DNA from: an uncultured bacterium
GTDB taxonomy: Bacteria; Methylomirabilota; Methylomirabilia; Methylomirabilales; JACQHM01
Assembly (NCBI GenBank): GCA_964535215.1
Contig: CAZHST010000014.1
Location: forward strand, 13,297 to 72,401
Direction of reading: 5' to 3'
Length of the DNA stretch: 59,105 nucleotides
The notes under the pieces are model-generated. The model worked only from the letters and a program-made list of their open reading frames with translations. It had not been told where the DNA came from and did no database searches. The translations under genes were made by a program, and so were the position numbers. Of this stretch, positions 6,431 through 57,550 are shown in pieces; position 1 is the first letter of the stretch; each line of letters opens with the position of its first letter.

Positions 6431-6447
6431 GGCACCATTCGTAGGAG

Positions 6448-8285: not shown

Positions 8286-8319
8286 AGGGGGCTGGTCGCC
8301 GGTGGCTGATCGTCCTGGT

Positions 8320-22697: not shown

Positions 22698-22828
22698 CCT
22701 CCTTGACCGGGGAAAGGGGAACTTGCTATCGTAGGTGCGTTTGCCAACCCTTTTCCAGGTTCCCCGGGTTGATCCGGTTTGTTGGGTTCCTGGGGACCGG
22801 GTCAGCCCTGGGAGGACGGAGGTGTCTG

Positions 22829-27263: not shown

Positions 27264-27282
27264 CGTCCTCCCGCATCCCTTC

Positions 27283-31149: not shown

Positions 31150-31157
31150 CTTGCACC

Positions 31158-32156
31158 TTAGGACATGTTCCAGCGGATCATGGTCCACAGATCCTTCCAA
31201 CTCTTCCCCAGGGCTCGGACGGCCGAGGCCTCGAAGCCGGAATGCATCATGCAGTTCTGGCAGCGCCGATCCCTTCGGGACTCCCAATAATCCCAATCAA
31301 CTCCCCGCCAGAACTCCTCCCAGGTTTTAAAGTATTTCTCCCCGATCAGGTAGCAGGGTCCCTTCCAGCCCAGAGGGGTATAGGTGACGGTGCTCCACGG
31401 GGAACAGGGATAGTCGCGCAGGCCGGCGGCGAACTCGAGGAACATCGGGGTGGAGGTCAACCGGTATCGCTTGGACAAGTCCAGCACCTGCCTGAACTTT
31501 CGATGGATGTCCTGGCGGGTCAGGAAGATGTTCCGATCTACGGACTCGTAATGGTAACCCGGGGAGATCAGCATCCCGTCCACCCTCAGGTCGTGGAGCA
31601 GCTCGCAGAGCTTCTCTACCTCGTTGATATCGGTCTCCTTAAAGACCGTGGTGTTGGTCATCACGTGATAGCCGAGACGCTTCCCTTCCCTGATCATGGC
31701 GATGGCTTTCTCAAAAACCCCATCCCGATCGCAGACGTAGTCGTGGGTGTGTTTCAGCCCATCCAGATGGACGTTGATGGTCAGTCTCTTGTGAGGGGGG
31801 ATGACGCCATAGACCTTCTTGTCAAGCAGGAGACCGTTGGTGCACAGGTAGATGTGCCGCTTCCTGGCGATGATTCCTGCGATTAACTCCCTTAGCTCCG
31901 GGTAGATGGTCGGCTCACCGCCGCAAATGGAAACGGCGGGTGCTCCGCACTCGTCTACCGCCTTGAGGCATTGCTCAACCGTTAACCGGTCTTCCAGCTT
32001 CCCCGTATGCCGCTCCAGCGCACAGCCCAGGCAGGCCAGGTTGCAGGTGTAGAGCGGTTCAAGCATTAAGACGAAGGGATAGCGTCGGTTACCTTTCAAC
32101 AGGTTTCGGATCTGGTGCTTCACCATACCCGTGGTGATATGCAGTGGAAACCGCAT
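31158..32156 (-). CDS. hpnH: hopanoid biosynthesis radical SAM protein HpnH (adenosylhopane synthase)
   Basis: RYPFVLMLEPLYTCNLACLGCA CxxxCxxC cluster followed by HTGKLE, collinear with HpnH. The start may be 48 nt further upstream (32204). Confidence 0.8.
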   Translation of the reverse strand: MRFPLHITTGMVKHQIRNLLKGNRRYPFVLMLEPLYTCNLACLGCALERHTGKLEDRLTVEQCLKAVDECGAPAVSICGGEPTIYPELRELIAGIIARKRHIYLCTNGLLLDKKVYGVIPPHKRLTINVHLDGLKHTHDYVCDRDGVFEKAIAMIREGKRLGYHVMTNTTVFKETDINEVEKLCELLHDLRVDGMLISPGYHYESVDRNIFLTRQDIHRKFRQVLDLSKRYRLTSTPMFLEFAAGLRDYPCSPWSTVTYTPLGWKGPCYLIGEKYFKTWEEFWRGVDWDYWESRRDRRCQNCMMHSGFEASAVRALGKSWKDLWTMIRWNMS

Positions 32157-32212: not shown

Positions 32213-33256
32213 TTACCGGTCTTCAAGGCCTTTCGGCTCGGACCCGCCTAAGGGCCTGTTATCCCTCGTGGGGCAACCCCAGCCCCTCACCTCATAGTGG
32301 GTGAGCGCCAACAGGCCAAAGCCCACCCATAAAAGCTCCCGTCCCCTCCGGACCAGGCTGAAGGTCATCGCGGCCTCGGAGGGGAGGGAGAACGCGAGAA
32401 AGATGAGGACGTTCCCTCCTTCCTGGAGGCCAAGGCTCCCCGGGATGAAGAAGGCGGCAGCCTTGGTGAGCGTTGAAAGGGCTTCAATGGCGACGGCCGT
32501 GGAAAGCCTAACGGGTATCCCGAGGAAGGCGAGGAGGAAGTAGACTTCTAAGCTGCCGATCATCCATCCTGAGAAGAAGAAGGTAAACGAGGTCGTGAAG
32601 GACCACCGGTTCTTCAGGTAGAAATCGGCGATCATCCGATCGAGGGAGCCAAGCTCCGCCTCCCGCTTTTCCAAAGGTGGGAGCGAAAGCTTGACAGCCT
32701 TGGTGAGTTTTAAGAGGCCGGAGAAGAGGCCCCGTCGTTGGGCGAGGAGAAAGAGGGCGATGGCCGGGATCCCCGTCGCCGTTAGGGCCATCGAGGCCAC
32801 GATGAAGGGACCCCCGGCCCCCCCTGGGCGGATGGCCATGAGCAATCCTAGGACGATGAAGACCAGATGGGCCATGGCCATAATGGTCTTGGTCACCACC
32901 AGCGAGGCAAGGCCCTGGTCCTGGGGAATCCCCTGCCGGTTCAGGAGATAGGCCTTTAACGGTTCCCCCCCGAGGGAGGCCAGGGGGGTTAGGTAGTTCA
33001 GAGCCTCCCCAGCCATCCTGATGGAAAAGATCGTGGAGGCGGGGATGGAGCGGGCCTTTGTCCCCAGCACACACCTCCACCCGAGAGTGTCAAAGATATA
33101 CACCATGAGGTACGGTGTGAGGAGGATCGGCAACCTCCAGCCCAACCGTTTCAGACGGGAGAAGAGGATGCCTGGGCCTGTCTGGAAGATCAGGAAGGCA
33201 AAGAGGGCAATCCCGATGACCAGGAAGAGTAAGGTGACTTTCTTAGGGGGCCTCAT
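32213..33256 (-). CDS. HpnL-like flippase-like membrane protein (UPF0104 / lysyl-PG synthase TM-region family), copy 1
   Basis: 347 aa, about 8 TM helices. The N-terminus LLFLVIGIALFAFLIFQTGPGILFSRLKRLGWRLPILL is typical of UPF0104. First gene of the long leftward hopanoid operon. Confidence 0.6.
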   Translation of the reverse strand: MRPPKKVTLLFLVIGIALFAFLIFQTGPGILFSRLKRLGWRLPILLTPYLMVYIFDTLGWRCVLGTKARSIPASTIFSIRMAGEALNYLTPLASLGGEPLKAYLLNRQGIPQDQGLASLVVTKTIMAMAHLVFIVLGLLMAIRPGGAGGPFIVASMALTATGIPAIALFLLAQRRGLFSGLLKLTKAVKLSLPPLEKREAELGSLDRMIADFYLKNRWSFTTSFTFFFSGWMIGSLEVYFLLAFLGIPVRLSTAVAIEALSTLTKAAAFFIPGSLGLQEGGNVLIFLAFSLPSEAAMTFSLVRRGRELLWVGFGLLALTHYEVRGWGCPTRDNRPLGGSEPKGLEDR

Positions 33257-34667: not shown

Positions 34668-35660
34668 CTATCCCACCTCTGACCTTATCCGTTTGAGGCC
34701 ATAACGGGCCAGCGTGGCGAGACCTAGGCTGACCCAGAAAAGCTCCCTGCCCCGTCTCACCAAGCTGAACGTCATCCCTGCCTCCATGGGAAGGGAGAAG
34801 CCAAGGAAGATCAGCATATTCCCCCCCTCTTGGGCTCCTAGAGCTCCTGGGATGACGAAGGCTACGGCTTTGGTGAGGACCGAGAGACCTTGGATAGCAA
34901 AGGCCGTCGGAAGGTCCACGGGCAGCTTTAGAAAGGAGAGCAGCAGGTAGACCTCCAGGCTCTGAACCATCCAACCACCCAGGTGGAACCCCCAGGAGAG
35001 GAGAAAGCTTCGGGCATCTTTGGTGTAAAAGGCGGCGATCTGACGGTCCAGGCTCCGGATCCGTTCCTCCCACCGCTGGAGCCGGGTCTTCAGGAAGGTT
35101 ACGGCTCTGGCAGGCAAGAGAAGCCAGGTGAACAGGCCCTGTCGCTGGAGCACAATCAAGAACGCCATGGCGGGGATCCAAGCGAGGATCAGCACGACTG
35201 AAAAGGTGAGGAAGGGGCTCTTTGCCCCTATCTGGTGTATGGCCAGGATGATCCCGATGACGGTGAAGGTCATCTGGGCCAGGGTCATGGCGGTCTTGGT
35301 GACGACGACAGAGGTCAGGCCCTTCTCAAGGGGGATCTCGTGGGATTTTAGCAAATACGCCTTGACCGGCTCGCCTCCAAGGGAGGCTGAGAAGGTCAGG
35401 TAGTTTACGGCCTCACCGGCCGCTCGGATAAGAAAGAGCCTTGAAAACGGGATTGATGCGCCATCCGCCAACGTCACTCTCCACCCCAGGGTAAAGAAGA
35501 AATAACCGAACGCATACGGCAGGAGGAGGAGGGTCAGCTTCCAGCCCAGGGCCCGAAGGTGGAGGGCGATGGTCAAGGGACCGACCCGGTACACGAGGAA
35601 GGCAAACAAGAGAAGGCCGAGGCTTAGCACCAAAACGTTTAGGGTCTTCGTCTTGATCAC
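34668..35660 (-). CDS. HpnL-like flippase-like membrane protein (UPF0104 family), copy 2
   Basis: Paralog of 32213-33256 with the same N-terminal pattern VLSLGLLLFAFLVYRVGPLTIALHLRALGWKL. It overlaps the upstream fusion gene by 4 nt. Confidence 0.6.
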   Translation of the reverse strand: MIKTKTLNVLVLSLGLLLFAFLVYRVGPLTIALHLRALGWKLTLLLLPYAFGYFFFTLGWRVTLADGASIPFSRLFLIRAAGEAVNYLTFSASLGGEPVKAYLLKSHEIPLEKGLTSVVVTKTAMTLAQMTFTVIGIILAIHQIGAKSPFLTFSVVLILAWIPAMAFLIVLQRQGLFTWLLLPARAVTFLKTRLQRWEERIRSLDRQIAAFYTKDARSFLLSWGFHLGGWMVQSLEVYLLLSFLKLPVDLPTAFAIQGLSVLTKAVAFVIPGALGAQEGGNMLIFLGFSLPMEAGMTFSLVRRGRELFWVSLGLATLARYGLKRIRSEVG

Positions 35661-36994
35661 GGCCTTGGTCCTTGGGCTTTCTCGGAGCGCCGACGGGCCT
35701 TAACCCTTCTCCGGAAGGCAGCGTAGAGGACGAGGGGCCAGAAGAGATTTGTCCCGATGGCCCCAACCCAGAAGAACCAGTGGATCTTGTTCACAACCGC
35801 GAGGAGGAGGAAGAGGAGGGAGAAATCCCGGTGTCTGATCGCCTCGACGATCCCCTCAAGCCTTCGATCGAGGTTTTCTGTCTCCCCGGGCCCTCCACTC
35901 CTGGTCTTGGGGCCCATCATGTGGAGGGTAAAGGCCAGACCGGAAAGGAGAGTCCCTCCTATCAACAGGATCCCGAAGGTAAGGACCTGCCAGCTGGGGG
36001 AGCGGAGGTAGACGACCCGGGTGAGACCCGCGAAGATCCCCAGATGGACGGCGTTATCCAGGATGAAGTCCAACCACCCTCCCCCTCGGCTTTCCAGGAA
36101 CTTGATCCGGGCCAGCATCCCGTCCGCTAAGTCCATCACGAAGGAAAGGACGAGGAGAAGGGCCCCTGTCAGGACGCTGGCATACCCAGCCTGCCACAGG
36201 AAGGCGGCGGCCGCTATCCCTGAGAGGAAGCTGAGGAAGGTAAGCTGGTTGGGGGTGGCTTGAGTCTCGACGAGGGCCTTCACCACCAGGGCCGCCACCT
36301 TCCGGGTCTCTCGGATCACGATGGTGTCGGTTGGCTTTCCCAAGGAGCGGTATAACGCCCTCTCGGCTTCGTCAGTCGGGAGGGAAGAGGTGTCAAAGAC
36401 GTAGGCGTATTCGTCTGGGAGGGTCAGAAGGTACTTTCGGTGGTCCTTGAAGGTCAGGAGGAGCTCTTCCCATCCCTTTGGTCCTTCCCGGTCCAGGGCT
36501 TCGGCGATGAGGCGTATGATCCGTGAGGAGACCAGGGCGATCCCGTGATGGCCTTCCGAGGCCCCCCGGGCAGGAATCAGAATGTCCAGATCCTCTTCAA
36601 AGGCGGCGTGCATCCGTTCCAGCACGACGGGGGCAAAGATCGTCCCCCCATCGAGCAGGAACACTGGGGGTCGTTCCTCTTCCAACCACTCCTCTAGGGT
36701 TCCCCCTTGGGGGTGGAGCGGAGGACAGAACCATGAGACCTGGGCCTTGATCCCGGACCTCTCCGCCAGGAGGGTCTGGAGCTTGGGGGTCTCAGGTCCC
36801 GAGAGGACAAGGAACCGGTGAACCCCCGCTCGTTGTGCCGCAAGGATGATCCTGATGAAGACAGGCACCCCGGCTAACGGGTGGAGGGCAGGGGTCCAGT
36901 CCCCTCCTGGGGGGGGAACGATCAGGGCTGAGAGGGTGATCGCTTTCATAGCGCTCTTCCCCGTTCCCGATCCACGGGGTGGGCGTTTGTTCAC
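35657..36994 (-). CDS. bifunctional nucleotidyltransferase-like / CDP-alcohol phosphatidyltransferase fusion protein
   Basis: The N-terminal roughly 230 aa is an NTP-transferase-like fold (LHPLAGVPVFIRII) with a degenerate Gly-rich loop (IVPPPGGDW). The C-terminal membrane domain carries the CDP-OH-P transferase signature DLADGMLAR...GGWLDFILDNAVH (D-G-x2-A-R...G-x3-D-x3-D). Confidence 0.65.
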   Translation of the reverse strand: MNKRPPRGSGTGKSAMKAITLSALIVPPPGGDWTPALHPLAGVPVFIRIILAAQRAGVHRFLVLSGPETPKLQTLLAERSGIKAQVSWFCPPLHPQGGTLEEWLEEERPPVFLLDGGTIFAPVVLERMHAAFEEDLDILIPARGASEGHHGIALVSSRIIRLIAEALDREGPKGWEELLLTFKDHRKYLLTLPDEYAYVFDTSSLPTDEAERALYRSLGKPTDTIVIRETRKVAALVVKALVETQATPNQLTFLSFLSGIAAAAFLWQAGYASVLTGALLLVLSFVMDLADGMLARIKFLESRGGGWLDFILDNAVHLGIFAGLTRVVYLRSPSWQVLTFGILLIGGTLLSGLAFTLHMMGPKTRSGGPGETENLDRRLEGIVEAIRHRDFSLLFLLLAVVNKIHWFFWVGAIGTNLFWPLVLYAAFRRRVKARRRSEKAQGPRP

Positions 36995-40776: not shown

Positions 40777-41094
40777 CTCCCAAAGCTTAGAGACCTGTCA
40801 GGGGGGTCCCATCTTATGTACCACGGTTTTGCCGAAAAGCAAGGAAAAAATCCCGGGTCGAGGATCGGAGGCGTTTGACAAACCCCCGGGCCTACGCTAT
40901 CATGCTCCCCGATCTCCAGTCCCATGGCATTTTTTGAACCATGGGGCCCCAGCCGACGTATCTGGAGGGAGGGAACAATCTGGGAAGAGGTGGTGTTCTG
41001 TAAGGGAGGGGTGGGTCAGCCTGGGAGGCCCATGGAGGGGGAGCGAGCCGGTGGGATTTATCATCGGGGTCCCTGGTTCCGAAAGGAGGGTTCG

Positions 41095-42501
41095 ATGAAC
41101 TGGAGGCGAGGACCGAGGGTGGTGCTAGGACTCCTGGGAGCTTTTGGGCTCTTTGCCTTTCCCCCTCCCCTGAAGGCGCAAGAGGTGCCGAGAACAGGGA
41201 CGGTCATCCTTGACCTCAAGCAGGCCATTGAAATGGCGGTCATGACAAGCCCTGACATCAAGCGGGTGCAGGCGGGTGTGGACGCTGCCCAGGCCAAGAA
41301 GGATCAGGCCGATGCCGGACGACTCCCCCAGTTCGAGTTCACGAGCGTCTTGGGCCCCTCGCCCGAGGCCCGGGTCTTCACCACGGAATTGGGCGATGTC
41401 CGATCAACCGATCGAACGGACCGGCCAACCATCAACGGGATCTTCGGGCGGAGTGACTTTACGTTGATCCAGCCCTTGTACACCTTTGGTAGGATCTCGG
41501 GGCTCCGGGAGGCCGCCGGCCATGGGGTTCGGGTCGAGCAGGCGCGGGTGGAAGAAAAGACCTCGGAGGTCATCTTGAAGGTCAAGGAGGCCTATTACAG
41601 CCTCCTCCTCGGGATGGAGCTCCAGAACCTCCTCCTCGATATCCAGGAGCAGTTGGAGCGGGCCCTGGAGAAGGTGGAACGGATCCTGGAGGCTGGGGCG
41701 CCCGGGGCGGATGAGGTGGATCGGTACAAGCTCAGGACCTTCCGGGGGGAGCTTCAGCGGAACCTGAATGAGGTGGCGAAGGTGATTGATGTGGCCACCG
41801 CCGGGCTCAAGACCTTGACCGGCTTGGCGCCCGATCAGGTGGTCGAGCCAGCGGTGAAAACGCTGGAACCGGATCCCAGGCCCGTCCCTCCTCTCGAGCA
41901 GGCCCTTAAGGAGGCCCAGGAGCGGCGGCCGGAGTTCGTTCAGATCCGCGAAGGCCTGTTGGCCACCCAGGCCTTGGTGGCGGCCGCGAGGGCAGAACGC
42001 TATCCCCAGCTGTTCATGGCCGTCACAGGTTCCGTGTCCCGGGCCACCAACCGTACCCCCCTCACCAACCCGTTCGTCTTCGACGAGCTGAATCATACGG
42101 TGGTAGTCCCGCTGATCGGCTTCAAGTGGCACTTCGACTTCGGCATCCTTGCCGGCAAGGTTCGAGAAGCCCAGGCCGAGCATCAGAAGGTGGTTCACGC
42201 CAAGGAACTGGCGGAGCAGGGGGTCCCCTTTCAGGTGAGAAAAGCCTACCGGGAGCTGGAGGAGGCCCGGCAGAGCATCAAGGCGACGGAGGAGGCGTAT
42301 GCCAACGCGAGGAGGTGGCTGGTGGCCGCGGTGGCCAACTTCGATTTGGGCGTGGGCGAGGCCAAGGAGGTAGCCGATGCCCTTGTCGCCTTCGTCAAGA
42401 TGCGGGCGGAGAATTTCAAGGCGATCTTTAACTACAACATGGCCCTTGCCGCCCTGGACCAGGCGACCGGCAAGGCCGTCCAAGAAGTGGGAAGACCCTG
42501 A
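41095..42501 (+). CDS. TolC-like outer membrane efflux protein
   Basis: Signal peptide MNWRRGPRVVLGLLGAFGLFAFPPP, two OEP repeats with coiled-coil segments. RBS GAAAGGAGGG upstream of this ATG; the longer ORF from 40924 is unlikely. Confidence 0.7.
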   Translation: MNWRRGPRVVLGLLGAFGLFAFPPPLKAQEVPRTGTVILDLKQAIEMAVMTSPDIKRVQAGVDAAQAKKDQADAGRLPQFEFTSVLGPSPEARVFTTELGDVRSTDRTDRPTINGIFGRSDFTLIQPLYTFGRISGLREAAGHGVRVEQARVEEKTSEVILKVKEAYYSLLLGMELQNLLLDIQEQLERALEKVERILEAGAPGADEVDRYKLRTFRGELQRNLNEVAKVIDVATAGLKTLTGLAPDQVVEPAVKTLEPDPRPVPPLEQALKEAQERRPEFVQIREGLLATQALVAAARAERYPQLFMAVTGSVSRATNRTPLTNPFVFDELNHTVVVPLIGFKWHFDFGILAGKVREAQAEHQKVVHAKELAEQGVPFQVRKAYRELEEARQSIKATEEAYANARRWLVAAVANFDLGVGEAKEVADALVAFVKMRAENFKAIFNYNMALAALDQATGKAVQEVGRP

Positions 42502-42561
42502 GGGGAAGGCAACGGGGGAGGCGTGGCTCCGGGAACACGGGGAGAGAGGAGGTTTTTGAGG

Positions 42562-43197
42562 ATGGGACGACGATGGGGGCACACCAAGAGGATGGCTTGG
42601 GCAGGGTCCTGGTTGGGGATCCTCTTCCTGGCTCAAGGGTTCCTTTCCACCGCCGTGGCCGGGGAACCCTTGGAACAGGTCAAGGCAACCCTGGAGGCTG
42701 CTTCGGCGATCCTGGGGGACCCGAAGCTTGCTGGGCCGGAAAAGGAGGAGGAGCGGAGGGAGGCGGTCAAGAAGATCATCTTCGATCGCTTTGATCTTCG
42801 GGAGATGGCGGCCCGCTCCCTGGGGGATCAGTGGGCCAAGCTGACCCCATCCCAACAGGAGGAGTTTGTCCAGGTCTTTGGCGACCTCTTCCAAAGGTCC
42901 TACACCCGCCTGGTGCTCAGGTTTCTCCCGGAAAGGCGGACCCTTTATGGGCAGGAGAGGCTGGATGGGTCAACGGCCCTGGTGAAAACGACCCTGGTCA
43001 GTCAGCGGAACGAGCGGTTGCCGGTTGATTACCGACTCATCAAGAAGGGGCCCCGGTGGGCCTTTTTCGACGTGATCATTGATGGGGTCAGCATCGTTGG
43101 GAACTATCGAACCCAGTTCAGCAAAATTATCCGAAACTCCTCCTATGAGAGCCTCGTCCGCCGCATGAAACTCAAACAGGAACAGGAGTCCTTTTAG
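42562..43197 (+). CDS. MlaC/Ttg2D-family lipid-binding periplasmic protein (HpnM-like)
   Basis: Signal peptide, then IIFDRFDLREMAARSLGDQWAKLTPSQQEEFVQVF...FFDVIIDGVSIVGNYRTQF, the toluene-tolerance Ttg2D/MlaC fold. Next to the hpnN/TolC genes. Confidence 0.65.
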   Translation: MGRRWGHTKRMAWAGSWLGILFLAQGFLSTAVAGEPLEQVKATLEAASAILGDPKLAGPEKEEERREAVKKIIFDRFDLREMAARSLGDQWAKLTPSQQEEFVQVFGDLFQRSYTRLVLRFLPERRTLYGQERLDGSTALVKTTLVSQRNERLPVDYRLIKKGPRWAFFDVIIDGVSIVGNYRTQFSKIIRNSSYESLVRRMKLKQEQESF

Positions 43198-43240: not shown

Positions 43241-44470
43241 TTACCGCTCCCGGTAGAAGATCAGCAACACGCCGAAGGCGATCACCAGGAACCGCCAGAG
43301 GAGCTTGGGGATGGAGGAACCAGGGTCCCGGTCCCAGAGGAGCTTTGTTCCCCCGATGAGGATGGCCAGGAGGCCCATCGCGGCGTGTTGGAGATAGATC
43401 TTGAAGCCGGAAAGGCCCCAGGTGAGCTGCTGGGTGATGAAGGCGAAAAGGTGTCCAGACTTACCGTGGCCCCCATGAGAGACCAGGAGGGCCCCTGAGA
43501 CAATGGCCAGACCAGGGAAGAGGTAACCCCAGGCCGGGTGGAGGAGCCATCCCTCCTTCCTGAAAAGCTCGATCAACCCGATGGCCAACATGGCGAGGCC
43601 GAGGACCTTATGCTGCCAGACCGAGGGGATGGCCAACCCTTCCAGGAGGGGGATCGGGCCTAGCGGCCAGACCTGCGGGTCACTCCGGACGAGGACCCAG
43701 AGGCTTAAGCCGATGGCTCCAAGGGGCCAGAGGGATTTCAGCCAGCGACGGCCCGGGAGGAAGACCTCAATCACGGCCAGGATCCCGACCAGCAGGAGGA
43801 GGAACCCCGAGGAGCGGTGGTTAAACTCGGAGAACGCAATCTGCCCCGGGGTCCGTTGCCAGCCCCCGTGCTCGTGGCCTCCTCCCGGGAGGCCCTCGCT
43901 CCCCCCATAGGAGGCGAGGAACGGGTTGGTCTCCGCGAAAAGGCCGCTCGGGTTGGGGAACCAGGCCCAGACGTGGAGACTCCAGAGACTGGGATGCCAG
44001 ACTTCGAAGGGAGCTCCCGTTTTGGGATGGGTCTTTGGGCAGAGATCGGCGGCGGAGGCTTCCTCCTCGCTCCCGTCAGCGTAATGACAACTGGCTTTAT
44101 GCCGGAACCAGGGAGCCCTGGGAAAGAAGGTGCGGGGAGGGGTTGGGCCTCCGGCCACGTACTCCACGCCGGCCAACTGCCATTGACCCCTCTCCTCCAC
44201 GTAGAGGAGCATCTGGGGCCGGGTGAGGTCGAAGTCGGTGATGGAAGGGTTGAAGTAGTGATAGCCATGGAGGCGGATCATGCCGGTCATCTGGCGGTAC
44301 CCATGCTTCCTGGCCTGATCGATGTCGAGGAACTGGATGGTCGCCGTGCGGATCTGGGCGACGATCTGGCTCAGATCCCCTTCAGCAGCCTGGCCGGGGA
44401 GCACCCCCCAGACCAAGCCCCCGACGATCAAGCCCCCAAGCCAGCGCTTCATTTCGTTCCTCCTTTCCAT
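43241..44470 (-). CDS. membrane protein of unknown function (N-terminal periplasmic domain + C-terminal polytopic domain)
   Basis: 409 aa. Signal or anchor helix, about 200 aa soluble region, then about 6 TM helices with His/Gly-rich loops (HGGHGKSGH). Confidence 0.4.
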   Translation of the reverse strand: MERRNEMKRWLGGLIVGGLVWGVLPGQAAEGDLSQIVAQIRTATIQFLDIDQARKHGYRQMTGMIRLHGYHYFNPSITDFDLTRPQMLLYVEERGQWQLAGVEYVAGGPTPPRTFFPRAPWFRHKASCHYADGSEEEASAADLCPKTHPKTGAPFEVWHPSLWSLHVWAWFPNPSGLFAETNPFLASYGGSEGLPGGGHEHGGWQRTPGQIAFSEFNHRSSGFLLLLVGILAVIEVFLPGRRWLKSLWPLGAIGLSLWVLVRSDPQVWPLGPIPLLEGLAIPSVWQHKVLGLAMLAIGLIELFRKEGWLLHPAWGYLFPGLAIVSGALLVSHGGHGKSGHLFAFITQQLTWGLSGFKIYLQHAAMGLLAILIGGTKLLWDRDPGSSIPKLLWRFLVIAFGVLLIFYRER

Positions 44471-44623
44471 GGCTGAACGGAGAGGCCTTGCTCGAGAACG
44501 ATAGGGGAATCATAGCATTCCTCCTCCAAAACCGCAAAGGCTGGCGGGGGCTCGGGGAGTCTGCGATTTCCTTGACCTCCCCCGGTGTTTGTGCTACCAT
44601 TTGCTCCAGTTTTGGAGGTGCCG

Positions 44624-44962
44624 ATGAGACGATCCCCGCCGGCTAGACTGGAGACGATGGGGGCCATCCTGACCGCGGTGGTCTTGGTGCTTGGGTCCCT
44701 CCTGATTGAAAGGGTTGGCTCTTTCCAGGAGGCCCAGGCCTGCGAAAGCTCCCCCTTCGAAGAGGTGCTCCAGTTGGTCCGGTCTGATGGATCCTCTGCC
44801 CGAAGTTTCCCCCCTGCCCATCTCCAACCTCTTTCCCCCCTTCTGCCATGGGTTGCCCTTGGTCCCGGCACGACCCCTCGTCCCTCGGAATTCTATGCCG
44901 TTACCTTACCTCTCCAGGCATCCTCCCGCGAATTCTCTTCCCACCTCCCCCTTCGCCTGTGA
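44624..44962 (+). CDS. small hypothetical membrane-anchored protein
   Basis: 112 aa ORF with an N-terminal TM helix and a Pro-rich tail. Preceded by TTGACC-17-TACCAT (44572-44600) and GGAGG. No recognisable family. Confidence 0.25.
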   Translation: MRRSPPARLETMGAILTAVVLVLGSLLIERVGSFQEAQACESSPFEEVLQLVRSDGSSARSFPPAHLQPLSPLLPWVALGPGTTPRPSEFYAVTLPLQASSREFSSHLPLRL

Positions 44963-45050: not shown

Positions 45051-46373
45051 ATGGAGCTGGACTCCCATCGGAACCGGCGATCCCTGGAGGAACGGCCCAG
45101 GTTGGCTGTGGGGGTGCTCGTTGACCTAAAGTGGCGTCCTGAGGCCGGTGGACAGGTCAAGTGCTGGGAGCGCTTGGCCAGGGCCGCCGCCGCGTTCAAA
45201 GATCAGGTGGACCTGACCATCCATTTCCTGGGGGATCAGGAGGAGAGGGACAGCATCTCCGAGAACGTGCGCTACATTACCCACCCGCCCCTCCTCAGTA
45301 CGGGACGGCTTCGCTTCCTGGGCCAGATCCCGGAACATACCGACCTCGCCCCTTTGCACCCGAGGCTTCTTCCCTACCTGGGCTGCTACCAGGTGATCCA
45401 CACCACCGACGCCTTCTTCGCCTTCGCCAAAACGGCCCTTGCCTTCACGAGGCGATCCCGGGTGCCGTTGGTCACTTCGATCCACACCGATACCCCCCGG
45501 TATACCCGGCTCTACACCCAAGCGGTCATCCGCCGGCTCTTCAAAGAGGGGCGATTGGCTCGCTTCCTCCTCGACCGGTTCCGTTTCGACGAACGCTGTT
45601 ACGTCTCCACGTTGCGGAAGCTCGACCGGTATCTCGAGCGGTGCGACTGGATCCTGGTCTCGAACCGGGAGGATTGGGAACGGGTTTCAAGGGTGTTGCC
45701 GGAAAAGCGGATTTCTTTCCTCCGGCGGGGGATTGACAAGGAGGCCTTCCACCCCCGGTGGCGGCATCGGGCGAAGCTGGAGGCGGCCTTCGGCATCCCC
45801 CCGGATCGGTTCCTGTTGCTCTTTGTGGGGCGGGTGGACCAGGGGAAGAACGTGATGACCCTGGCCCAGGCGGCCAAGCGGTTACTGGATCAGGGGGAGC
45901 CTATCCATGTCATGATCGTTGGGGAGGGGAGCCAGAAAGAGGCGGTCCGCACCCTCCTTGGTCCTCATGTCACCCTTCCAGGGGTGGTCTCGCCCTCGAC
46001 CCTCGCCTGGCTGTATGCCAGTGCCGATCTCTTCGTGTTCCCTTCGGAAATCGAGGTCTGCCCCAACGTGGTGATCGAAGCAAAGGCGTCAGGGCTTCCC
46101 GTCCTGGTCTCGGCAAAGGGGGGGGCGGCCCAGTGTCTCAAACAGCCCGGCGTGGACGGAGTCATCGTCGAGGCGAACAACCCTGCCCTCTGGGCCCGGG
46201 CTGTTGCCTTCTTGAGGAGGGATTTAACGCTCCGGGTCCGGATGGGGCAAGAGGCGAGGCGGCATATCGAAACGGAGTGGCCTTCGTGGGAGGAGGTCCT
46301 GGCTCAGGATCTCCTCCCGGTCTGGCAGACGGTGGCCAAGAAAGGCCAGGTCTTCTCGGATCCACACGCCTGA
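45051..46373 (+). CDS. glycosyltransferase family 4 (GT-B, group 1) protein
   Basis: The C-terminal domain has the EX7E-type motif region (FVFPSEIEVCPNVVIEAKASGLPVLVS). Exact start uncertain. Confidence 0.75.
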   Translation: MELDSHRNRRSLEERPRLAVGVLVDLKWRPEAGGQVKCWERLARAAAAFKDQVDLTIHFLGDQEERDSISENVRYITHPPLLSTGRLRFLGQIPEHTDLAPLHPRLLPYLGCYQVIHTTDAFFAFAKTALAFTRRSRVPLVTSIHTDTPRYTRLYTQAVIRRLFKEGRLARFLLDRFRFDERCYVSTLRKLDRYLERCDWILVSNREDWERVSRVLPEKRISFLRRGIDKEAFHPRWRHRAKLEAAFGIPPDRFLLLFVGRVDQGKNVMTLAQAAKRLLDQGEPIHVMIVGEGSQKEAVRTLLGPHVTLPGVVSPSTLAWLYASADLFVFPSEIEVCPNVVIEAKASGLPVLVSAKGGAAQCLKQPGVDGVIVEANNPALWARAVAFLRRDLTLRVRMGQEARRHIETEWPSWEEVLAQDLLPVWQTVAKKGQVFSDPHA

Positions 46374-46390
46374 GCCACCCGGAGGGGGAA

Positions 46391-47506
46391 ATGGGGAAGC
46401 CGGTCTCGGTCCTGAAACAGGTCAGGGCAGGATGGCAGCTCCTGGCGGGCGGTGGGCCGGGGATCTGCAACATCGCCATCACCAATGCCTGTAACGCCAG
46501 GTGTGACTTCTGTAACTACGCGTACGATAAACCGTTTGTCACCAAGAAGGTCATGGTGGGCTTTCAGGAGCTATGCGAGGCCATTGATATCCTTTACGAG
46601 AGAGGGATCCGGTACCTCACTTTTTCAGGGGGCGAGCCCCTCCTCCATCCGAGGCTCAAGGATATGGTGGCGTACGCGGTGGAGAAGAGGATGAGGCCCT
46701 CCATCTGCACTAACGGCTTCCTCCTTACGCCCCGGATGATTCGCGACCTCAAGGCCAGCGGCCTTCAGACGCTCTTCATCTCCATTGATGCCACCTCATC
46801 CCAGGAGCACGAGCAGAACCGAGGGCTCCCTGGCGTCTGCGGGCGGATCAAGGAGGCAAACCATGAACTCAAAGGCCTCGGGATCAAGACCGTGGCCTCG
46901 GTGACCATCAACAAATTGGTTAAGGACTTTGCCCGACTCCTCCGCTTTCTTCAAGAGCTTGGGTTCGAGACCGTGACCTTCTCCTACCCGAAGCGGGTCC
47001 TGGGCTCGTCCTCCCTGGTCTTTTCCGAGACCTCGCCCCTTGTCGATTACACCCCTGAGGAGCTGATCGTGGCCTTTGAGGAGATCAGGCGGCTCAAGGG
47101 TCAGTTCCGCATCCTGAACCCAGGGGAATCCCTGGCGGAGATGGTCCGGTTCCTCAAGAGAGAGCCGCAGCGCTTCCCCTGCTTCGGGGGGTACAAGTAC
47201 TTCTTCCTGGATTGGAACCTGGACGTCTACCGGTGCGACTTCTGGCCGACGCGGATGGGCTCCATCTATGAGTTCCGGGAGACGCCGTTCATTCGGGACA
47301 ACTGCACCCTCTGCATGAGCGATTGCTACCGGGACTCTAGCGTCTTGCTGCATGTGGCCGTCTCCCTGGGGGATGCCATCGGCCACCTGAGGCAGGGCCA
47401 CCTGTTAAGGGCCATGCGTGCCCTCGTGACCCGGAGCAACGCCTGGTCTCTCAAGGCCCTGGTCCAGGAGTGGGGAACGCTTAGGAGCCTGGCGAAGCGG
47501 AGGTGA
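46391..47506 (+). CDS. radical SAM protein with C-terminal Cys-rich (SPASM/twitch-like) region
   Basis: ITNACNARCDFCNY CxxxCxxC cluster near the N-terminus. Additional cysteines CTLCMSDC near the C-terminus. Confidence 0.75.
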   Translation: MGKPVSVLKQVRAGWQLLAGGGPGICNIAITNACNARCDFCNYAYDKPFVTKKVMVGFQELCEAIDILYERGIRYLTFSGGEPLLHPRLKDMVAYAVEKRMRPSICTNGFLLTPRMIRDLKASGLQTLFISIDATSSQEHEQNRGLPGVCGRIKEANHELKGLGIKTVASVTINKLVKDFARLLRFLQELGFETVTFSYPKRVLGSSSLVFSETSPLVDYTPEELIVAFEEIRRLKGQFRILNPGESLAEMVRFLKREPQRFPCFGGYKYFFLDWNLDVYRCDFWPTRMGSIYEFRETPFIRDNCTLCMSDCYRDSSVLLHVAVSLGDAIGHLRQGHLLRAMRALVTRSNAWSLKALVQEWGTLRSLAKRR

Positions 47507-48294
47507 ACCCCTCGGTGTTCGGGAAGCGAATCCTCCTGCTCATCCCCCACCCGGACGACGAGGTGGTGGGGTGCTCGGCAGCGGTAGGGCGGGCGCGAGT
47601 CCAGGGGGCGGAGATTTTTGGGTTTTACCTGACCACGGGGGTCCCGCCTCGGGAGGCGCTCTGGTGGTGGCAGCGGAGAGGCTACCCACGTCTCGTCGAG
47701 CGACGCCGAAAGGAGGCCGAGCAGGTGGCGGCGCTCCTCGGGATCGAGGCCGTCGAGTTCCAGGAGATCCCCTCCCGGACGTTAAAAAGCTTTCTCGGTC
47801 CAACCCGGGAGAAGCTCATCAGGGCAATTCGGGGGCATCAGATCGACACCCTCTGGGCTCCGACCTACGAGGGGGGGCACCAGGATCACGATGCCGCCAG
47901 CTTCCTCTCGAGTACGCTTAAAGGCTCCGTCCAGGTCTGGGAGTTCAGCGAGTACCACTACTTCGGGGGAAGGGTGCGGTGTCACGAATTTTTCGCCCCC
48001 AACGGGACAGAATGGGTTCTTCTCCTGGACGACGGGGAGCGGGAGGTGAAGCGGAAGGCCCTCGCCCTTTACCGGTCGGAACGGAAGAACCTTCGGCACA
48101 TCGAGATTGCCCGCGAGGCCTTCCGCCCGTTGGCCAGCTACGACTACCGTCAGCCCCCGTATCGGGGAAAGCTGTTCTACCAGCGCTTTCAATGGGTTCC
48201 GGCCCATCCCCGGATCGATCCCTGTCGGCCTGAAGCCGTGTGTCAGGCCTTTGACCGCTTCATGTTAGAGGGGGGAGACCGGGGAGAGGGATAG
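47503..48294 (+). CDS. PIG-L/LmbE family N-acetylglucosaminyl deacetylase
   Basis: LLIPHPDDEVVGCSAAV zinc-binding motif. 4-nt overlap with the radical SAM gene. Confidence 0.75.
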   Translation: MNPSVFGKRILLLIPHPDDEVVGCSAAVGRARVQGAEIFGFYLTTGVPPREALWWWQRRGYPRLVERRRKEAEQVAALLGIEAVEFQEIPSRTLKSFLGPTREKLIRAIRGHQIDTLWAPTYEGGHQDHDAASFLSSTLKGSVQVWEFSEYHYFGGRVRCHEFFAPNGTEWVLLLDDGEREVKRKALALYRSERKNLRHIEIAREAFRPLASYDYRQPPYRGKLFYQRFQWVPAHPRIDPCRPEAVCQAFDRFMLEGGDRGEG

Positions 48295-48322: not shown

Positions 48323-50059
48323 CTATTCCTTGATCTCGGCCCAAGCCCGCTGGTAGTCCTCGAAGGTGTTGATCTCCATCCAGCCTTTGTAGATCTCGAC
48401 ACAGGAGACCTTGACCCCTTCGTCGATCATCGCCTGAAGGAGGTCGGTCAACGAGGCCTTCTCGATGGATTCAGCCTCATAGAACCTCTGATGCCGGTAT
48501 CGGTCCAGGGCCCGTCGGTAGGCTTCTTTGAGGCTTTGAGCCCCTTTCTCCGAGAACATCGCCATGCCGATGAACTCCCCGTGGGCCTCGTCAGGGTCGA
48601 TGTCATGACCGATCCTGACCACGGTGTTTTCCCCTTCAGGGGGAAGGAAGCGGTAACCATGAACCGGGGGGGTTTTCATCACGACCAGGGCCGGCTTTGC
48701 CTTGTACGTCGGAGGGTCGATGCCGTCCCGACGATTATGGTACCAGGCCCGATCCACGGCCAGCACGATGTCCCCTTTGCTCTTCAAGAGCTTCTCCAAG
48801 ACCCCCCGGTCAAAGATGATGTCCCCGTAAAGGAAGATAAAACGACCCTCGATCTCAGGTTCAGCGCAGAAGAGAGAATACAGGATGTGGGTTTCCTGGA
48901 ACCGGTCATTCTCATAGTAGCGGATATTTGGGTAATCGATGCTTTCCTTCTTATACCCCCGGACAACGGCGATCTCCTTGATGGAACACTCGTTGAGCCT
49001 GGCGATCTGGCGCTCCAGGATGGTTTTCCCTTTGATGTCCAGCATCGTCTTGGGCCGGTCCTTGATCAGCGGGAGGAGTTCCTTCTCGAATCCGGCCGCG
49101 AGGATGATGGCCTTAACCTTCTCCGCGCCCACGGGGAGGAACCGTTCTTCCCGATCTTTTAGCTCACTCACCCCTACCAGGTCGTAGACCTTTTCCAAAG
49201 GGACGATCCGGGCGGAGACGGCCTCCGCCGAGCCTTTCTCCTTCAAGAGGTGGAGGGTCTCCTCCATGGCCTTGATGGCCGCCCGGATGGCCTGATTGGC
49301 GAAGATGACGACCTTGAACCCCGACTCCTGAAGCTCCTCCAGGGTCACCGAGGGGAACAGGGTCGGAACGACAACCAGGGGTGCGGTTCCACTCCAGACC
49401 CTGGCGAACTCGCGAAGCTCGTGGAAAGAGCTGGCCTTGGAGTGGACGAGGATGGCGTCAGCGCCGGCCTCAGCGTACGCCTTGGCCCTCTTCAAGGCCT
49501 CTTCCATCCCCCAGCCGGCGATCAACGCCTCGGTCCTGGCAATGATCACAAAATCCCCCGTTCTCTGGACCTCCTTGGCCGCCCTGATCTTTCCGACATG
49601 TTCCTCGATGGAGACAAGCTCCCGGCGGACTCCCGGGTAAAAGCTACACCGCTTTGGAAAGACGTTGTCCTCGATGCAGATCCCTGCAATTCCCGCCGCT
49701 TCGAACTCGATGGTGGTCCGCATGACGTTGATGGCGTTGCCATACCCATCATCGCAATCGGCGATGACAGGAATCGAGACGGCCTGATTGATCTTCTTGA
49801 CGATCTCCAGGTTCTCGGTCATGGTTAAAAGCCCCGCGTCGGGGAGACCCATCTGGGCTGTGGAGATCCCGAAGCTCGAGGTCCAGACCGCATCAAAGCC
49901 GGCCCGCTCGATGAGTTTGGCACTGATGGCATCATGGGCCCCGGCCACCAAGATCATCCCAGGCCGTCGCAGGAGCTCTCGGAGCCTGATGGTTTTCTGC
50001 ACGGGTGAAGACCTCCTTCTGGCCAACGAAGCGGACGAACCCTCCGAGGTGACCCACAA
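48323..50059 (-). CDS. bifunctional phosphoenolpyruvate phosphomutase (PepM) / nucleotidyltransferase fusion
   Basis: The N-terminal roughly 300 aa (ILVAGAHDAISAKLIERAGFDAVWTSSFGIS...IADCDDGYG...GICIEDNVFPKRCSF) matches the PEP mutase branch of the ICL/PEPM family (EDKxFPKxNS-type, no KKCGH). The C-terminal roughly 250 aa is an NTP-transferase (KAIILAAGFEKELLPLIKDRPKTMLDIKGKTILE). Confidence 0.8.
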   Translation of the reverse strand: MWVTSEGSSASLARRRSSPVQKTIRLRELLRRPGMILVAGAHDAISAKLIERAGFDAVWTSSFGISTAQMGLPDAGLLTMTENLEIVKKINQAVSIPVIADCDDGYGNAINVMRTTIEFEAAGIAGICIEDNVFPKRCSFYPGVRRELVSIEEHVGKIRAAKEVQRTGDFVIIARTEALIAGWGMEEALKRAKAYAEAGADAILVHSKASSFHELREFARVWSGTAPLVVVPTLFPSVTLEELQESGFKVVIFANQAIRAAIKAMEETLHLLKEKGSAEAVSARIVPLEKVYDLVGVSELKDREERFLPVGAEKVKAIILAAGFEKELLPLIKDRPKTMLDIKGKTILERQIARLNECSIKEIAVVRGYKKESIDYPNIRYYENDRFQETHILYSLFCAEPEIEGRFIFLYGDIIFDRGVLEKLLKSKGDIVLAVDRAWYHNRRDGIDPPTYKAKPALVVMKTPPVHGYRFLPPEGENTVVRIGHDIDPDEAHGEFIGMAMFSEKGAQSLKEAYRRALDRYRHQRFYEAESIEKASLTDLLQAMIDEGVKVSCVEIYKGWMEINTFEDYQRAWAEIKE

Positions 50060-55939: not shown

Positions 55940-57550
55940 ATGGCCCTCAGGATCTACAACACGCTGACAAGGAAAAAGGAACTCTTTGAGCCCCTGGTGC
56001 CGGGCAAGGTCGGGATGTACGCCTGCGGGGTGACGGTGTACGACATCTGTCACATCGGCCACGCCCGACAGGCCTTGATCTTCGATGTGATCCGTCGCTA
56101 CCTGGAGTACAAGGGGTACCAGGTGACCTATGTCCGGAACTTCACCGATATTGATGACAAGATCCTCGTCCGGGCGAGGGAGCTGGGGATTTCCTGGGAT
56201 CAGGTAGCGAAGAGAAATATTGAGGCTTACTATCAGGATATGGATCGTCTGGAGATCCGGAGGGCGACGATCGAACCGAGGGCGACGGAGCATATCCCGG
56301 AGATGATCTGGATCATTGAGGGCCTCCTTCAGAAAGGCTACGCGTATCAGGTAAACGGCGACATCTACTTTGAGGTGAAACGGTTCCCCGACTACGGCAA
56401 GCTCTCCCATCGGGACCCTGATGAGATGTTAGCCGGGGCCCGGGTCGAGGTGGACCCTCGGAAGCGGGATCCCCTGGATTTTGCCCTCTGGAAGGCTTCG
56501 AAGAAGGGTGAACCCGCCTGGGAAAGCCCCTGGGGTCCTGGCCGGCCCGGCTGGCACATCGAGTGCTCGGCGATGTCCATGAAGTACCTTGGTGAGAGTT
56601 TCGACATCCATGGTGGTGGAGAAGACCTCATCTTCCCTCACCATGAGAACGAGATTGCCCAATCGGAGGCCTTGACCGGGAAACCTTTCGCCCGTTACTG
56701 GATCCATAATGGCTTTGTCAAGATCCGCCAGGAGAAGATGTCCAAGTCCCTCGGCAACGTCTTCACGATCCGAGAGCTTCTGGACCGCTACAGCCCCGGG
56801 GCCCTCAAGCTCTTCCTCCTCTCGACCCACTACCGGAGCCCCGTGGATTTTACCGAAGAGAAACTGGAGGAGGCGGAGAAGGCCGCCGAGAGGATCCAGA
56901 CGCTCCTCAGGAGGATTGCTGATCTGGAAGCCGTTGCCAAGGTTTGGCCTTCCCCATCGCCGATGGGAGAAGTGGAGGGGTTTCGTCGCTTGTTCGAGGC
57001 CAAGCAAACGGCTTTCGAAGAGGCGATGGATGACGATTTTAATACAGCTCAGGCTCTTGGGGTTCTCTTCGAGGTCGTCGAAGTTCTGAACCGGCTCTGT
57101 GATAGGCTGATCTCCCGGGGTATCGGGGTTGCCTCTGAAGACCTTTCCTTGCTCCGCCAGGGTAAAGCCCTGGTGCATAGAGTCGGAGACGTTTTTGGCT
57201 TATCGTTTAAAGCCAGCCCCAACGAATCGTTCTACAGTTCCATTTCCGGCATCGCCGAGGTTGATCAGGCCCTAGAATCGTCCAAGCGGGCGATTTTGAC
57301 CAAGCGATTTGAGGAGGCCGTGGAGATCATCGGGGGTCTCCTCAAGCGAAGGGAACAGGTGCGGGCCGCCGGGTTGTATGAGGAGGCTGATCGGATCCGG
57401 AGGGAACTTGAAGCTATGGGTATCAAGGTTGATGACACAAGGTTCTTCACGGCGGTCACCACCCCTTTTCCCAGTGGTCCTCAAGGTTCCCTGTACGTGA
57501 CCTTGATCAAAGATGAGAACTTTTCGCCCTCGTCGGCAAAGGATGGATGA
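55940..57550 (+). CDS. cysS: cysteinyl-tRNA synthetase
   Basis: [15 protein letters not shown] (HIGH), KMSKSLGN, zinc-binding cysteines. Confidence 0.9.

Follow-up and report, generated by a model that had tools for sequence, protein, structure and literature searches.

Three consecutive plus-strand genes in a 59,105-nucleotide (nt) stretch of DNA from an uncultured member of the Methylomirabilota (contig CAZHST010000014.1; this whole stretch is called the window) encode a glycosyltransferase, a radical S-adenosylmethionine (SAM) enzyme and a deacetylase. The trio stands at the end of a hopanoid cluster of ~27 kb and is convergent with a gene that fuses PepM to a nucleotidyltransferase. Its elements, defined by open reading frame (ORF) calls and Pfam domains or, for the Shine-Dalgarno-like motif, read in the sequence, are as follows.

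45051-46373, plus strand: glycosyltransferase of the GT4 family (GT-B, retaining), 440 amino acids (aa), candidate "S" (synthase) component
46381-46388, plus strand: Shine-Dalgarno-like GGAGGGGG ahead of the radical SAM start
46391-47506, plus strand: radical SAM enzyme of a hopanoid-cluster-associated family, 371 aa
47503-48294, plus strand: zinc de-N-acetylase of the PIG-L/LmbE family, 263 aa, predicted "D" (deacetylase) component

The original prediction described these genes as contiguous and co-oriented, with junctions of 4 and 18 nt. The contiguity, the shared strand and the 4-nt overlap, in which the radical SAM stop and the GTG start of PIG-L share the letters GTGA, all hold, but the gap between the GT4 and radical SAM genes measures 17 nt. 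A longer, GTG-started radical SAM ORF from 45758 is an artefact, the true start being the ATG behind GGAGGGGG.

Inspection of the sequences indicates that the catalytic motifs of the trio proteins are intact. GT4 matches Glycos_transf_1 (1.6e-29) and Glyco_transf_4 in Pfam, and we predict it to be a lipid N-acetylglucosamine (GlcNAc) or N-acetylhexosamine (HexNAc) transferase; the radical SAM protein matches Radical_SAM (PF04055, 7.1e-21) and Fer4_12 and contains no B12 domain. The third protein is an LmbE/PIG-L zinc deacetylase by its domain (PF02585, 3.6e-23) and by its (A/P)HPDDE and HxDH motifs, which are invariant across four orthologues (PHPDDE at residues 15-20; H126-x-D128-H129). None of the three reaches any NCBIfam equivalog cutoff. 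The best matches of GT4 fall far below theirs (stp2, 100 bits; the GlcNAc-phosphatidylglycerol (GlcNAc-PG) synthase model NF053787, 96.6 against 480 bits), its scores with the thiol-pathway models are 86.9 against 462.5 bits for MshA and 43.4 against 273.7 bits for BshA, and PIG-L shows only weak matches to BshB1 (37.2 bits against a cutoff of 182.5) and BshB2. Among solved structures, GT4 is closest to MshA (3c4q, 2e-17) and then to BshA, and PIG-L to diacetylchitobiose deacetylase (7e-8). The polyubiquitin chains at the top of the phmmer list of GT4 against the PDB (query 45051-46370) are a repeat-summing artefact with zero qualifying stretches and do not indicate homology. The proximity to MshA and BshA bears out the proposal that GT4 and PIG-L follow a GlcNAc-then-deacetylate logic, as in the mycothiol, bacillithiol and GPI-anchor pathways (MshA/MshB, BshA/BshB and PIG-A/PIG-L, respectively), in which a retaining GT4 GlcNAc transferase precedes an LmbE/PIG-L zinc deacetylase.

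HpnI, HpnJ and HpnK perform the same three chemistries, are likewise found in hopanoid clusters and frequently have HpnL as a partner (PMC12583986, PMC13459092). The claim that the trio encodes these chemistries in different protein families is supported by the following comparisons. HpnI belongs to GT2 and HpnK to YdjC, whereas the window encodes GT4 and PIG-L; HpnJ is a radical SAM enzyme with a cobalamin domain, whereas that of the trio is small, appears twitch/SPASM-like and lacks such a domain. BLASTP detected no similarity between GT4 and HpnI of Nostoc (E 0.23), between the radical SAM enzyme and a verified HpnJ (E 0.79) or between PIG-L and a verified HpnK (E 5.2). Likewise, the HpnI model (TIGR03472, cutoff 310 bits) is not among the 25 best of the 34 NCBIfam matches of GT4 (lowest listed, 31.6 bits), the HpnJ model (TIGR03471, cutoff 577.6 bits) is not among the 25 best matches of the radical SAM enzyme (lowest, 45 bits), and PIG-L does not match the HpnK model (TIGR03473). 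HpnI, HpnJ, HpnK, HpnO, HpnP and HpnR are not encoded in the 59-kb window.

A radical SAM family among hopanoid genes

A protein search with the radical SAM enzyme returned 2932 relatives, the nearest named homologue (83% identity) coming from a Methylomirabilales metagenome-assembled genome (MAG). A profile search of 1.84 billion 50%-identity cluster representatives gave 258 matches at E<=1e-30, with some tens of clear members, many of them fragments. The family is compact, with 45-90% identity over about eight phyla, and its place in the radical SAM superfamily follows from the CX3CX2C and GGE motifs, PF04055 and a beta/alpha core in the AlphaFold 2 model (pLDDT 94.1). Across 95 aligned members, C34, C38 and C41 of the CX3CX2C motif and G80-G81-E82 are invariant or nearly so, as are cysteines 264, 282, 305, 308 and 312 in a Cys-rich C terminus that looks twitch/SPASM-like in sequence; the Pfam SPASM domain is not matched, nor is any NCBIfam model at its cutoff. 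The nearest solved fold is that of the cytosylglucuronate decarboxylase BlsE (7vob; Foldseek 2.6e-14, TM 0.59/0.67, 20% identity), which is also the best profile match, and further neighbours by fold or profile are SuiB, SkfB, CteB, anSME, viperin, DesII and MoaA, while BtrN matches in the core only (E 2e-5). With BlsE, DesII, BtrN, viperin and MoaA the enzyme shares a partial TIM-barrel core and a Cys-rich C-terminal extension, and BlsE and related twitch/SPASM enzymes act on sugar rings. Unlike BlsE, it has a C-terminal cysteine pattern of its own (C-x17-C ... C-x2-C-x3-C), and a TM score of ~0.6 at 20% identity suggests that the family is distinct. Among plasmid sequences, the protein search found only distant BlsE, MoaA and SPASM relatives.

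We examined the neighbourhoods of this family in one genome per GTDB species, keeping the best 80 of more than 540 loci, which came from Cyanobacteria, Desulfobacterota, Alphaproteobacteria, Acidobacteriota, Verrucomicrobiota, Dormibacterota, Binatia and Burkholderiales. Neighbours within 10 kb were called by tblastn with the window proteins and with NCBIfam-verified seeds, which scored above cutoff for HpnJ (733-807 bits), HpnR (867), HpnK (401) and HpnL (291-316) and slightly below it for HpnI (287.8 against 310). A hopanoid-type marker was present within this range at 36 of the 84 non-redundant radical SAM loci. HpnL, the commonest direct neighbour, occurs in 20/84 and GT4 in 13/84, in every case directly upstream; the other counts are 10 for HpnA, 7 for SHC, 6 for HpnH, 5 each for HpnI and HpnJ, 3 for PIG-L and 2 for HpnR. 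The pairing with HpnL, the most frequent of the family, is tight: the two genes overlap or abut at stop and start, in the manner of translational coupling, both in an Azospirillum sp. (L171, 2318-11116), where HpnL and radical SAM overlap by 4 nt at the end of a co-directional SQS-HpnE-SHC-HpnG-HpnM-HpnA-HpnL-radical SAM series, and in Chelatococcus reniformis (L170, 8950-11128), where they form an isolated pair. In Nostoc, the order is SQS-HpnI-radical SAM, with HpnI (287.8 bits) immediately upstream. Together, these data identify the radical SAM enzyme as a member of a previously unrecognised hopanoid-associated family, whose function is assigned from context.

The family also adjoins bona fide HpnJ (TIGR03471, 733-807 bits, cutoff 577.6) in Verrucomicrobia, Acidobacteria, Acetobacteraceae and Burkholderiales. 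HpnH, HpnJ and radical SAM are consecutive on one strand in the verrucomicrobial UBA1319, and a Burkholderiales MAG combines the radical SAM gene with a full HpnI/J/K set (HpnB/HpnM-MlaA-radical SAM-HpnL-HpnN-HpnK-HpnJ-HpnI). Furthermore, in one 830-aa protein (P0373; L172, 2403-4895) a full HpnJ, which shares 53% identity with a verified HpnJ across 474 residues, is fused to the radical SAM enzyme; it is known from a single 5.9-kb contig and may be a real fusion or the result of a lost stop codon. Since the radical SAM enzyme coexists with real HpnJ, it is not merely an HpnJ analogue, and its presence with HpnJ in one operon points to a different or cooperating step. The original prediction, which proposed it as a possible analogue of HpnJ, is therefore not supported on this point, given the five loci with adjoining HpnJ and the fusion. 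Its partners HpnL, GT4 or HpnI, and HpnJ place the enzyme in the amino-sugar/cyclitol branch of hopanoid synthesis. In a neighbour-joining tree, the window enzyme groups with members associated with GT4, with GT4 and PIG-L, or with cyanobacterial HpnI, in a clade that has no HpnJ within 10 kb at any locus; the HpnJ-adjacent enzymes form two other clades.

Two specific roles are disfavoured. One is a part in forming pentols or hexols or in desaturating rings: Acetobacter, Komagataeibacter and Gluconobacter, the classic producers of pentol or unsaturated bacteriohopanepolyols, are absent from 120 close homologues of the Acetobacteraceae clade, and C. reniformis carries the enzyme yet makes neither. 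Likewise, the enzyme is probably not essential for the cyclitol ether (CE) of bacteriohopanetetrol (BHT), because Methylobacterium, Bradyrhizobium and Rhodopseudomonas are not among the named homologues listed, an argument limited to the top of the match list. The named isolates with the enzyme all belong to genera listed as shc/hpnH-positive (PMC12583986, Table 2), and the family is not listed in the PSI-BLAST by-catch tables of the same survey of 54 lipid-profiled strains. Cultivable carriers are available in Dongia, Belnapia, C. reniformis, Nostoc and Azospirillum.

The GT4-PIG-L pair and its frequent neighbour HpnL

A second scan, centred on PIG-L, covered 80 metagenome loci with PIG-L orthologues of 38-65% identity. 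In 51 of them PIG-L is immediately preceded, on its own strand, by a GT4 orthologue (41-62% identity), most exceptions being short contigs, and HpnL, the commonest direct neighbour of PIG-L, adjoins the pair in 30, with scores above the TIGR03476 cutoff in L095 and L145 (315.9 and 287 bits). SHC, HpnH or HpnA was found within 10 kb in 5-6/80 loci and the radical SAM gene in only 7/80. Besides the window, L005, L011, L088, L091/92, L096, L144 and L166 carry all three genes, while L093 and L162, cut by contig ends, show part of the trio. The grouping is not due to chance, since the same families recur together in at least seven other independent complete loci. The usual order of the recurring trio is GT4-PIG-L-radical SAM, whereas the window has GT4-radical SAM-PIG-L. 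Hopanoid core genes stand beside the trio in the window, in L011 (Desulfobacteraceae) and in the metagenome locus L096, and the cut contig L162 combines PIG-L-radical SAM with hopanoid genes. In the loci examined, GT4 and HpnI never occur together, and HpnJ never occurs with GT4. Recurrent co-location with shc, hpnH, hpnA and hpnL in unrelated lineages thus marks these families by context as members of the hopanoid gene set, and the suggestion that GT4 and PIG-L are non-orthologous analogues of HpnI and HpnK gains from their link to hopanoid clusters and HpnL across many lineages.

The window itself contains two HpnL-like genes.

32213-33256, minus strand: HpnL-like flippase-like protein, copy 1, candidate "F" (flippase) partner, 12 kb upstream of the trio; TIGR03476 181 bits (cutoff 195.65), TIGR00374 flippase-like 74.8 bits (above its cutoff of 43.2)
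34668-35660, minus strand: HpnL-like membrane protein, copy 2; TIGR03476 155 bits, under cutoff

Proposed amino-sugar head groups and competing readings

A closely similar architecture is known from other membrane lipids. The gpgSDF genes of Pseudomonas aeruginosa, which code for a GT4 synthase, a deacetylase and a flippase-like protein of the UPF0104 family, make GlcNAc-PG and glucosamine (GlcN)-PG, as established by genetics and heterologous expression, and the analogous hexSDF of Clostridioides difficile makes an aminohexosyl glycolipid (PMC12713373). Both systems assemble a GT4 synthase, a deacetylase and a UPF0104/AglD-type flippase-like protein in one module that places a cationic hexosamine on a membrane lipid, an arrangement that the GT4-PIG-L-HpnL loci resemble. 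The GT4-then-deacetylase order is found in the relatives (adjacent in 51/80 loci), while in the window the radical SAM gene stands between the two, and a UPF0104/AglD-type partner is adjacent in 30/80 related loci, while the HpnL-like genes of the window lie 12-14 kb away. The systems also differ in that GpgD is a COG3233 deacetylase rather than a PIG-L protein, that GT4 is not an equivalog of GpgS, that the flippase partner here is of the hopanoid-associated HpnL subfamily, that a radical SAM gene is added in a subset of loci, and that the acceptor is PG for GpgSDF and presumably a hopanoid here. The synthase-deacetylase-flippase logic is experimental for GpgSDF/HexSDF and presumed for HpnI-HpnK-HpnL. 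By analogy, GT4-PIG-L-HpnL is best read as a third variant, tied to hopanoids, in which GT2 is replaced by GT4 and YdjC by PIG-L; the architecture shared with both sets gives good support to GT4 and PIG-L as non-orthologous analogues of HpnI and HpnK.

Based on these comparisons, we consider it rather probable that the trio works as an operon-like part of the hopanoid cluster and both builds and tailors an amino-sugar head group on a membrane lipid, for which a C35 bacteriohopanepolyol is the most probable candidate. From the observed gene order, domains, motifs and conserved neighbourhoods we infer the substrates, products and step order of the following scheme. As its family and context suggest, the cytoplasmic GT4 would use a UDP-sugar to attach GlcNAc, or a different HexNAc, to a hydroxyl group of the lipid, giving an alpha-glycoside. 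GT4 enzymes retain and GT2 enzymes invert configuration (CAZy), and the product of HpnI, an inverting GT2 enzyme, is a beta-glycoside; the product of the retaining GT4 should thus be the alpha-anomer and differ from that of HpnI. PIG-L would then strip the N-acetyl group and expose a cationic amine, and the HpnL-type UPF0104 flippase-like protein, to judge by its conserved neighbourhood, may carry the product across the inner membrane. The radical SAM enzyme, with one SAM cluster, an auxiliary Cys-rich domain and no cobalamin domain, would add a radical step in the same head-group branch; by analogy with its sugar-acting relatives, it could form a carbocycle, oxidise an alcohol, or epimerise or dehydrate the lipid-linked sugar. 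Since it accompanies HpnI, HpnJ and HpnL in other phyla, we take it to assist or cooperate in forming amino-sugar/cyclitol hopanoids rather than simply to replace HpnJ.

Several observations weigh against this assignment to hopanoids or to a given step. Hopanoid genes are absent from the 10 kb around the long trio loci L005, L088, L091/92 and L166 and around several GT4-PIG-L loci (L120, L157). L005 is a 4.7-Mb contig of the Thermodesulfobacteriota, and the top 120 matches of an SHC homologue search include none on a contig of this length. GT4 resembles the GlcNAc-PG synthase (96.6 bits) as much as anything else, so a phospholipid acceptor is possible, and the two HpnL-like genes of the window are distant from the trio and score just below the HpnL cutoff. 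The lipids of C. reniformis, which has the HpnL-radical SAM pair, are ordinary hopanoids (BHT 45%, BHT-CE 52%, trace BHT-GlcNAc; PMC12583986, Table S6), so this strain reveals no product attributable to the radical SAM enzyme. Finally, the pairing of the radical SAM enzyme with both a retaining GT4 and the inverting HpnI is awkward for an action at or near the anomeric centre.

A more ambitious version, in which GT4, PIG-L and HpnL, optionally joined by the radical SAM enzyme, provide a second route to hexosamine- or cyclitol-type hopanoids that does not depend on HpnIJK, is on balance doubtful. If it is true, the radical SAM enzyme would count as a new enzyme of hopanoid biosynthesis that acts on a lipid-linked sugar by a chemistry of its own, and the products could be the CE-type hopanoids of bacteria in which hpnIJK were not detected.

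A still stronger proposal, that the trio completely replaces HpnI, HpnK and HpnJ and that its radical SAM enzyme performs a cobalamin-independent ring contraction to the BHT cyclitol ether, appears unlikely to us. It draws on the match of the three chemistries in proteins unrelated in sequence to HpnI/J/K, on the location of the trio within hopanoid clusters, on the HpnJ-free clade of the window enzyme and on the report of CE-type hopanoids from four Alphaproteobacteria without detected hpnIJK (PMC12583986). Ring contraction or C-C bond formation by radical SAM enzymes has precedents on hexoses linked to a lipid or an aglycone (Cds, PtmC, MitD). The calditol synthase Cds of Sulfolobus acidocaldarius converts a lipid-linked hexose to an ether-linked cyclopentitol and sets a mechanistic precedent for a non-HpnJ enzyme on a membrane lipid, with an archaeal tetraether as substrate (PMC13459092, PMC9092360). 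Against it, family members of 45-50% identity with the same invariant residues adjoin genuine HpnJ at five loci, including one where HpnI, HpnJ and HpnK are all present, and the HpnJ fusion is known from one contig. Furthermore, the alpha-anomer expected from GT4 is not the beta-GlcN substrate of the known route, no radical SAM gene is near 73 of the 80 GT4-PIG-L loci, and marine cyanobacteria were reported positive for almost all modification genes with the exception of hpnK and hpnP, which implies that they have hpnJ (PMC6744863).

We regard as quite improbable that GT4-PIG-L, with or without HpnL, modifies a non-hopanoid lipid such as PG or a glycolipid and lies in hopanoid clusters through co-regulation of envelope remodelling. 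The architecture is identical to that of GpgSDF/HexSDF, the GlcNAc-PG synthase is the second-best NCBIfam match of GT4, no hopanoid core gene is within 10 kb at many GT4-PIG-L loci, and the function of HpnL is admitted to be unknown (10.1101/2025.07.29.667474). Conversely, the score of 96.6 against 480 bits and the different family of GpgD separate the two systems, and the flippase-like partner meets the HpnL model, itself defined by hopanoid context. The module lies inside SHC/HpnH/HpnA/HpnN operons in the window, L011, L096, L102, L131 and L162, and the associated radical SAM enzyme also adjoins HpnI, HpnJ, HpnH and HpnR.

It is very improbable that the product of the trio is an amino-sugar metabolite in soluble or carrier-bound form, such as a mycothiol- or bacillithiol-like thiol or an aminocyclitol of the butirosin, mitomycin or pactamycin type. 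Butirosin biosynthesis uses a glycosyltransferase/deacetylase/radical SAM-type set, BtrM/BtrD/BtrN, and BtrN and DesII are among the distant matches of the radical SAM enzyme, but the BtrN similarity is marginal and restricted to the core. GT4, an LmbE-type deacetylase and a radical SAM enzyme also constitute the gene sets MitB/MitC/MitD and PtmJ/PtmG/PtmC, which act on a GlcNAc-derived unit and whose radical SAM enzymes are proposed to form a C-C bond or carbocycle; these work on aromatic aglycones bound to acyl carrier protein (ACP) in antibiotic clusters of actinomycetes (PMC8621148, PMC9092360). Although the closest structures of GT4 are MshA and BshA, the MshA, BshA, BshB1 and MshC models score far below their cutoffs, and the MshC-like match at 55940-57550 proves to be CysS itself (542.7 bits, above cutoff). 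No ligase, acetyltransferase, ACP, 3-amino-5-hydroxybenzoate (AHBA) or 2-deoxy-scyllo-inosose (2-DOI) synthase gene is present in the window, and the conserved neighbours are membrane and hopanoid proteins, unlike the setting of the mycothiol and bacillithiol pathways.

The preferred reading, of an amino-sugar head group on a hopanoid, touches several puzzles of the recent literature: the function of HpnL, a methylated cyclitol ether and CE-type lipids without detected hpnIJK (PMC12583986; 10.1101/2025.07.29.667474). A 2025 survey of Alphaproteobacteria found no candidate genes beyond hpnA/B/L/M evident near hpn clusters, reported unexplained isomers of BHT-GlcN and BHT-CE, and described four species with CE-type lipids and no detected hpnIJK (PMC12583986). 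The only genes named in a 2025-26 preprint are hpnS and hpnT, and HpnL is left without an explanation there (10.1101/2025.07.29.667474). Our full-text searches returned no paper that connects hopanoids with GT4, LmbE/PIG-L or the radical SAM family of the trio. GT4, PIG-L and the radical SAM enzyme are obvious candidates for these isomers and for the CE-type lipids of species without detected hpnIJK. GT4 and PIG-L mirror the lipid-hexosamine logic of GpgSDF/HexSDF and would cast HpnL as a flippase component, and a radical SAM family tied to HpnL, HpnI and HpnJ over about eight phyla is a concrete new candidate in a field in which hopanoid side chains matter as biomarkers and tune membrane properties.

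The surrounding cluster and minor observations

The other features of the cluster and of the flanks of the trio are listed here.

21732-44470, both strands: hopanoid biosynthesis/transport cluster (NCBIfam/Pfam)
22703-23749, plus strand: DUF6282 (amidohydrolase-like) protein
26457-27314, minus strand: Caroten_synth-family protein
30118-31296, minus strand: DUF3187 protein
35657-36994, minus strand: CDP-alcohol phosphatidyltransferase (Pfam), domain at aa 247-358 behind an N-terminal extension of ~240 aa
37150-39987, plus strand: HpnN-like RND protein, 629 bits (under the HpnN cutoff); BstA sterol transporter, 303 bits
40036-40776, minus strand: stand-alone nucleotidyltransferase, between the HpnN-like and TolC-like genes
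40924-42501, plus strand: TolC-like outer-membrane protein
42523-43197, plus strand: MlaC/HpnM-like protein
43241-44470, minus strand: 409-aa membrane protein without family match
44572-44600, plus strand: weak sigma-70-like promoter match upstream of the trio (TTGACC-17-TACCAT, 9/12)
48323-50059, minus strand: PEP_mutase (7.4e-64) with a C-terminal NTP_transferase domain (Pfam), the PepM fusion

Within 21732-44470, HpnD, the DUF6282 protein, an HpnG-like phosphorylase, SHC, the Caroten_synth protein, FPPS, HpnA, the DUF3187 protein and HpnH are accompanied by the two HpnL-like proteins, the CDP-alcohol transferase, the HpnN-like RND protein, the nucleotidyltransferase, the TolC-like and MlaC/HpnM-like proteins and the membrane protein without family match. 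SHC (803.7 bits), HpnH (384.5), HpnA (489) and HpnD (327.9) score above their NCBIfam cutoffs, and the HpnN-like, TolC-like and MlaC/HpnM-like proteins form a putative hopanoid export set. The DUF6282, Caroten_synth, DUF3187 and 409-aa membrane proteins do not recur beside relatives of the trio.

The PepM fusion, which scores slightly below the cutoff of the PepM model (281.7 against 319.55 bits), faces PIG-L across a 28-nt gap; on the near-identical contig L169 it was called with a later start (544 aa). The original prediction had linked it to the trio, a link that the data do not support: PepM is never a conserved partner of the trio, and no homologue of the fusion lies near any of the ~165 related loci. 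It is also very improbable that the trio, the fusion, with a cytidylyltransferase as its second part, and the CDP-alcohol transferase (35657-36994) together equip hopanoids with a composite head group in which the sugar is phosphonate- or phospho-linked: although the trio and PepM are neighbours in the window and in L169, the cluster also holds the CDP-alcohol transferase and an extra nucleotidyltransferase, and one metagenome protein fuses a radical SAM enzyme of the family to a CDP-alcohol transferase homologue, PepM is convergent and not co-transcribed, the 59-kb window encodes no phosphonopyruvate decarboxylase (Ppd), 2-aminoethylphosphonate (AEP) transaminase or other coupling enzyme, a CDP-alcohol transferase homologue is found near only one related locus, and the fusion evidence is a single protein. 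That protein (P0378, 718 aa) shows 34% identity to the window transferase over 213 aa (E 2e-30), and is a residual hint that phospho-linked elaboration may occur in some lineages. The best NCBIfam match of the stand-alone nucleotidyltransferase, below cutoff, is the inositol-1-phosphate cytidylyltransferase/DIPP synthase family, which together with the CDP-alcohol transferase hints at a CDP-activated head-group alcohol.

The promoter-like match at 44572-44600 is a lead only, since promoter and terminator scans around the trio gave nothing above chance (two promoter sites against 1.1 expected). A possible small ORF (44625-44962, plus strand, ~112 aa, one hydrophobic segment) lies between it and the GT4 start.

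Several radical SAM loci have features of their own. A Microcoleus MAG (L006) carries tandem paralogues (6059-7207 and 7232-8377) ~7 kb from SHC, and L061 and L069 have a second copy on the opposite strand. The closest long relatives, with 69-74% identity in the radical SAM enzyme, are L001 (8627-15714) and L086 (231-11686), probably also Methylomirabilota, in which a MacB/FtsX and OEP pair is followed by the radical SAM gene, a conserved membrane protein of ~495 aa with a weak DUF6798 match, and a PMT_2-like protein; either HpnR (867 bits) or GT4 and HpnL are close by, and PIG-L is absent. The CBASS-like defence genes of L001 (2383-5076; CD-NTase C-terminal domain, Cap15-like, NmeDI-like) and an integrase near its radical SAM gene are unrelated. 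In the window, the first 20 kb and the last 9 kb consist of housekeeping genes.

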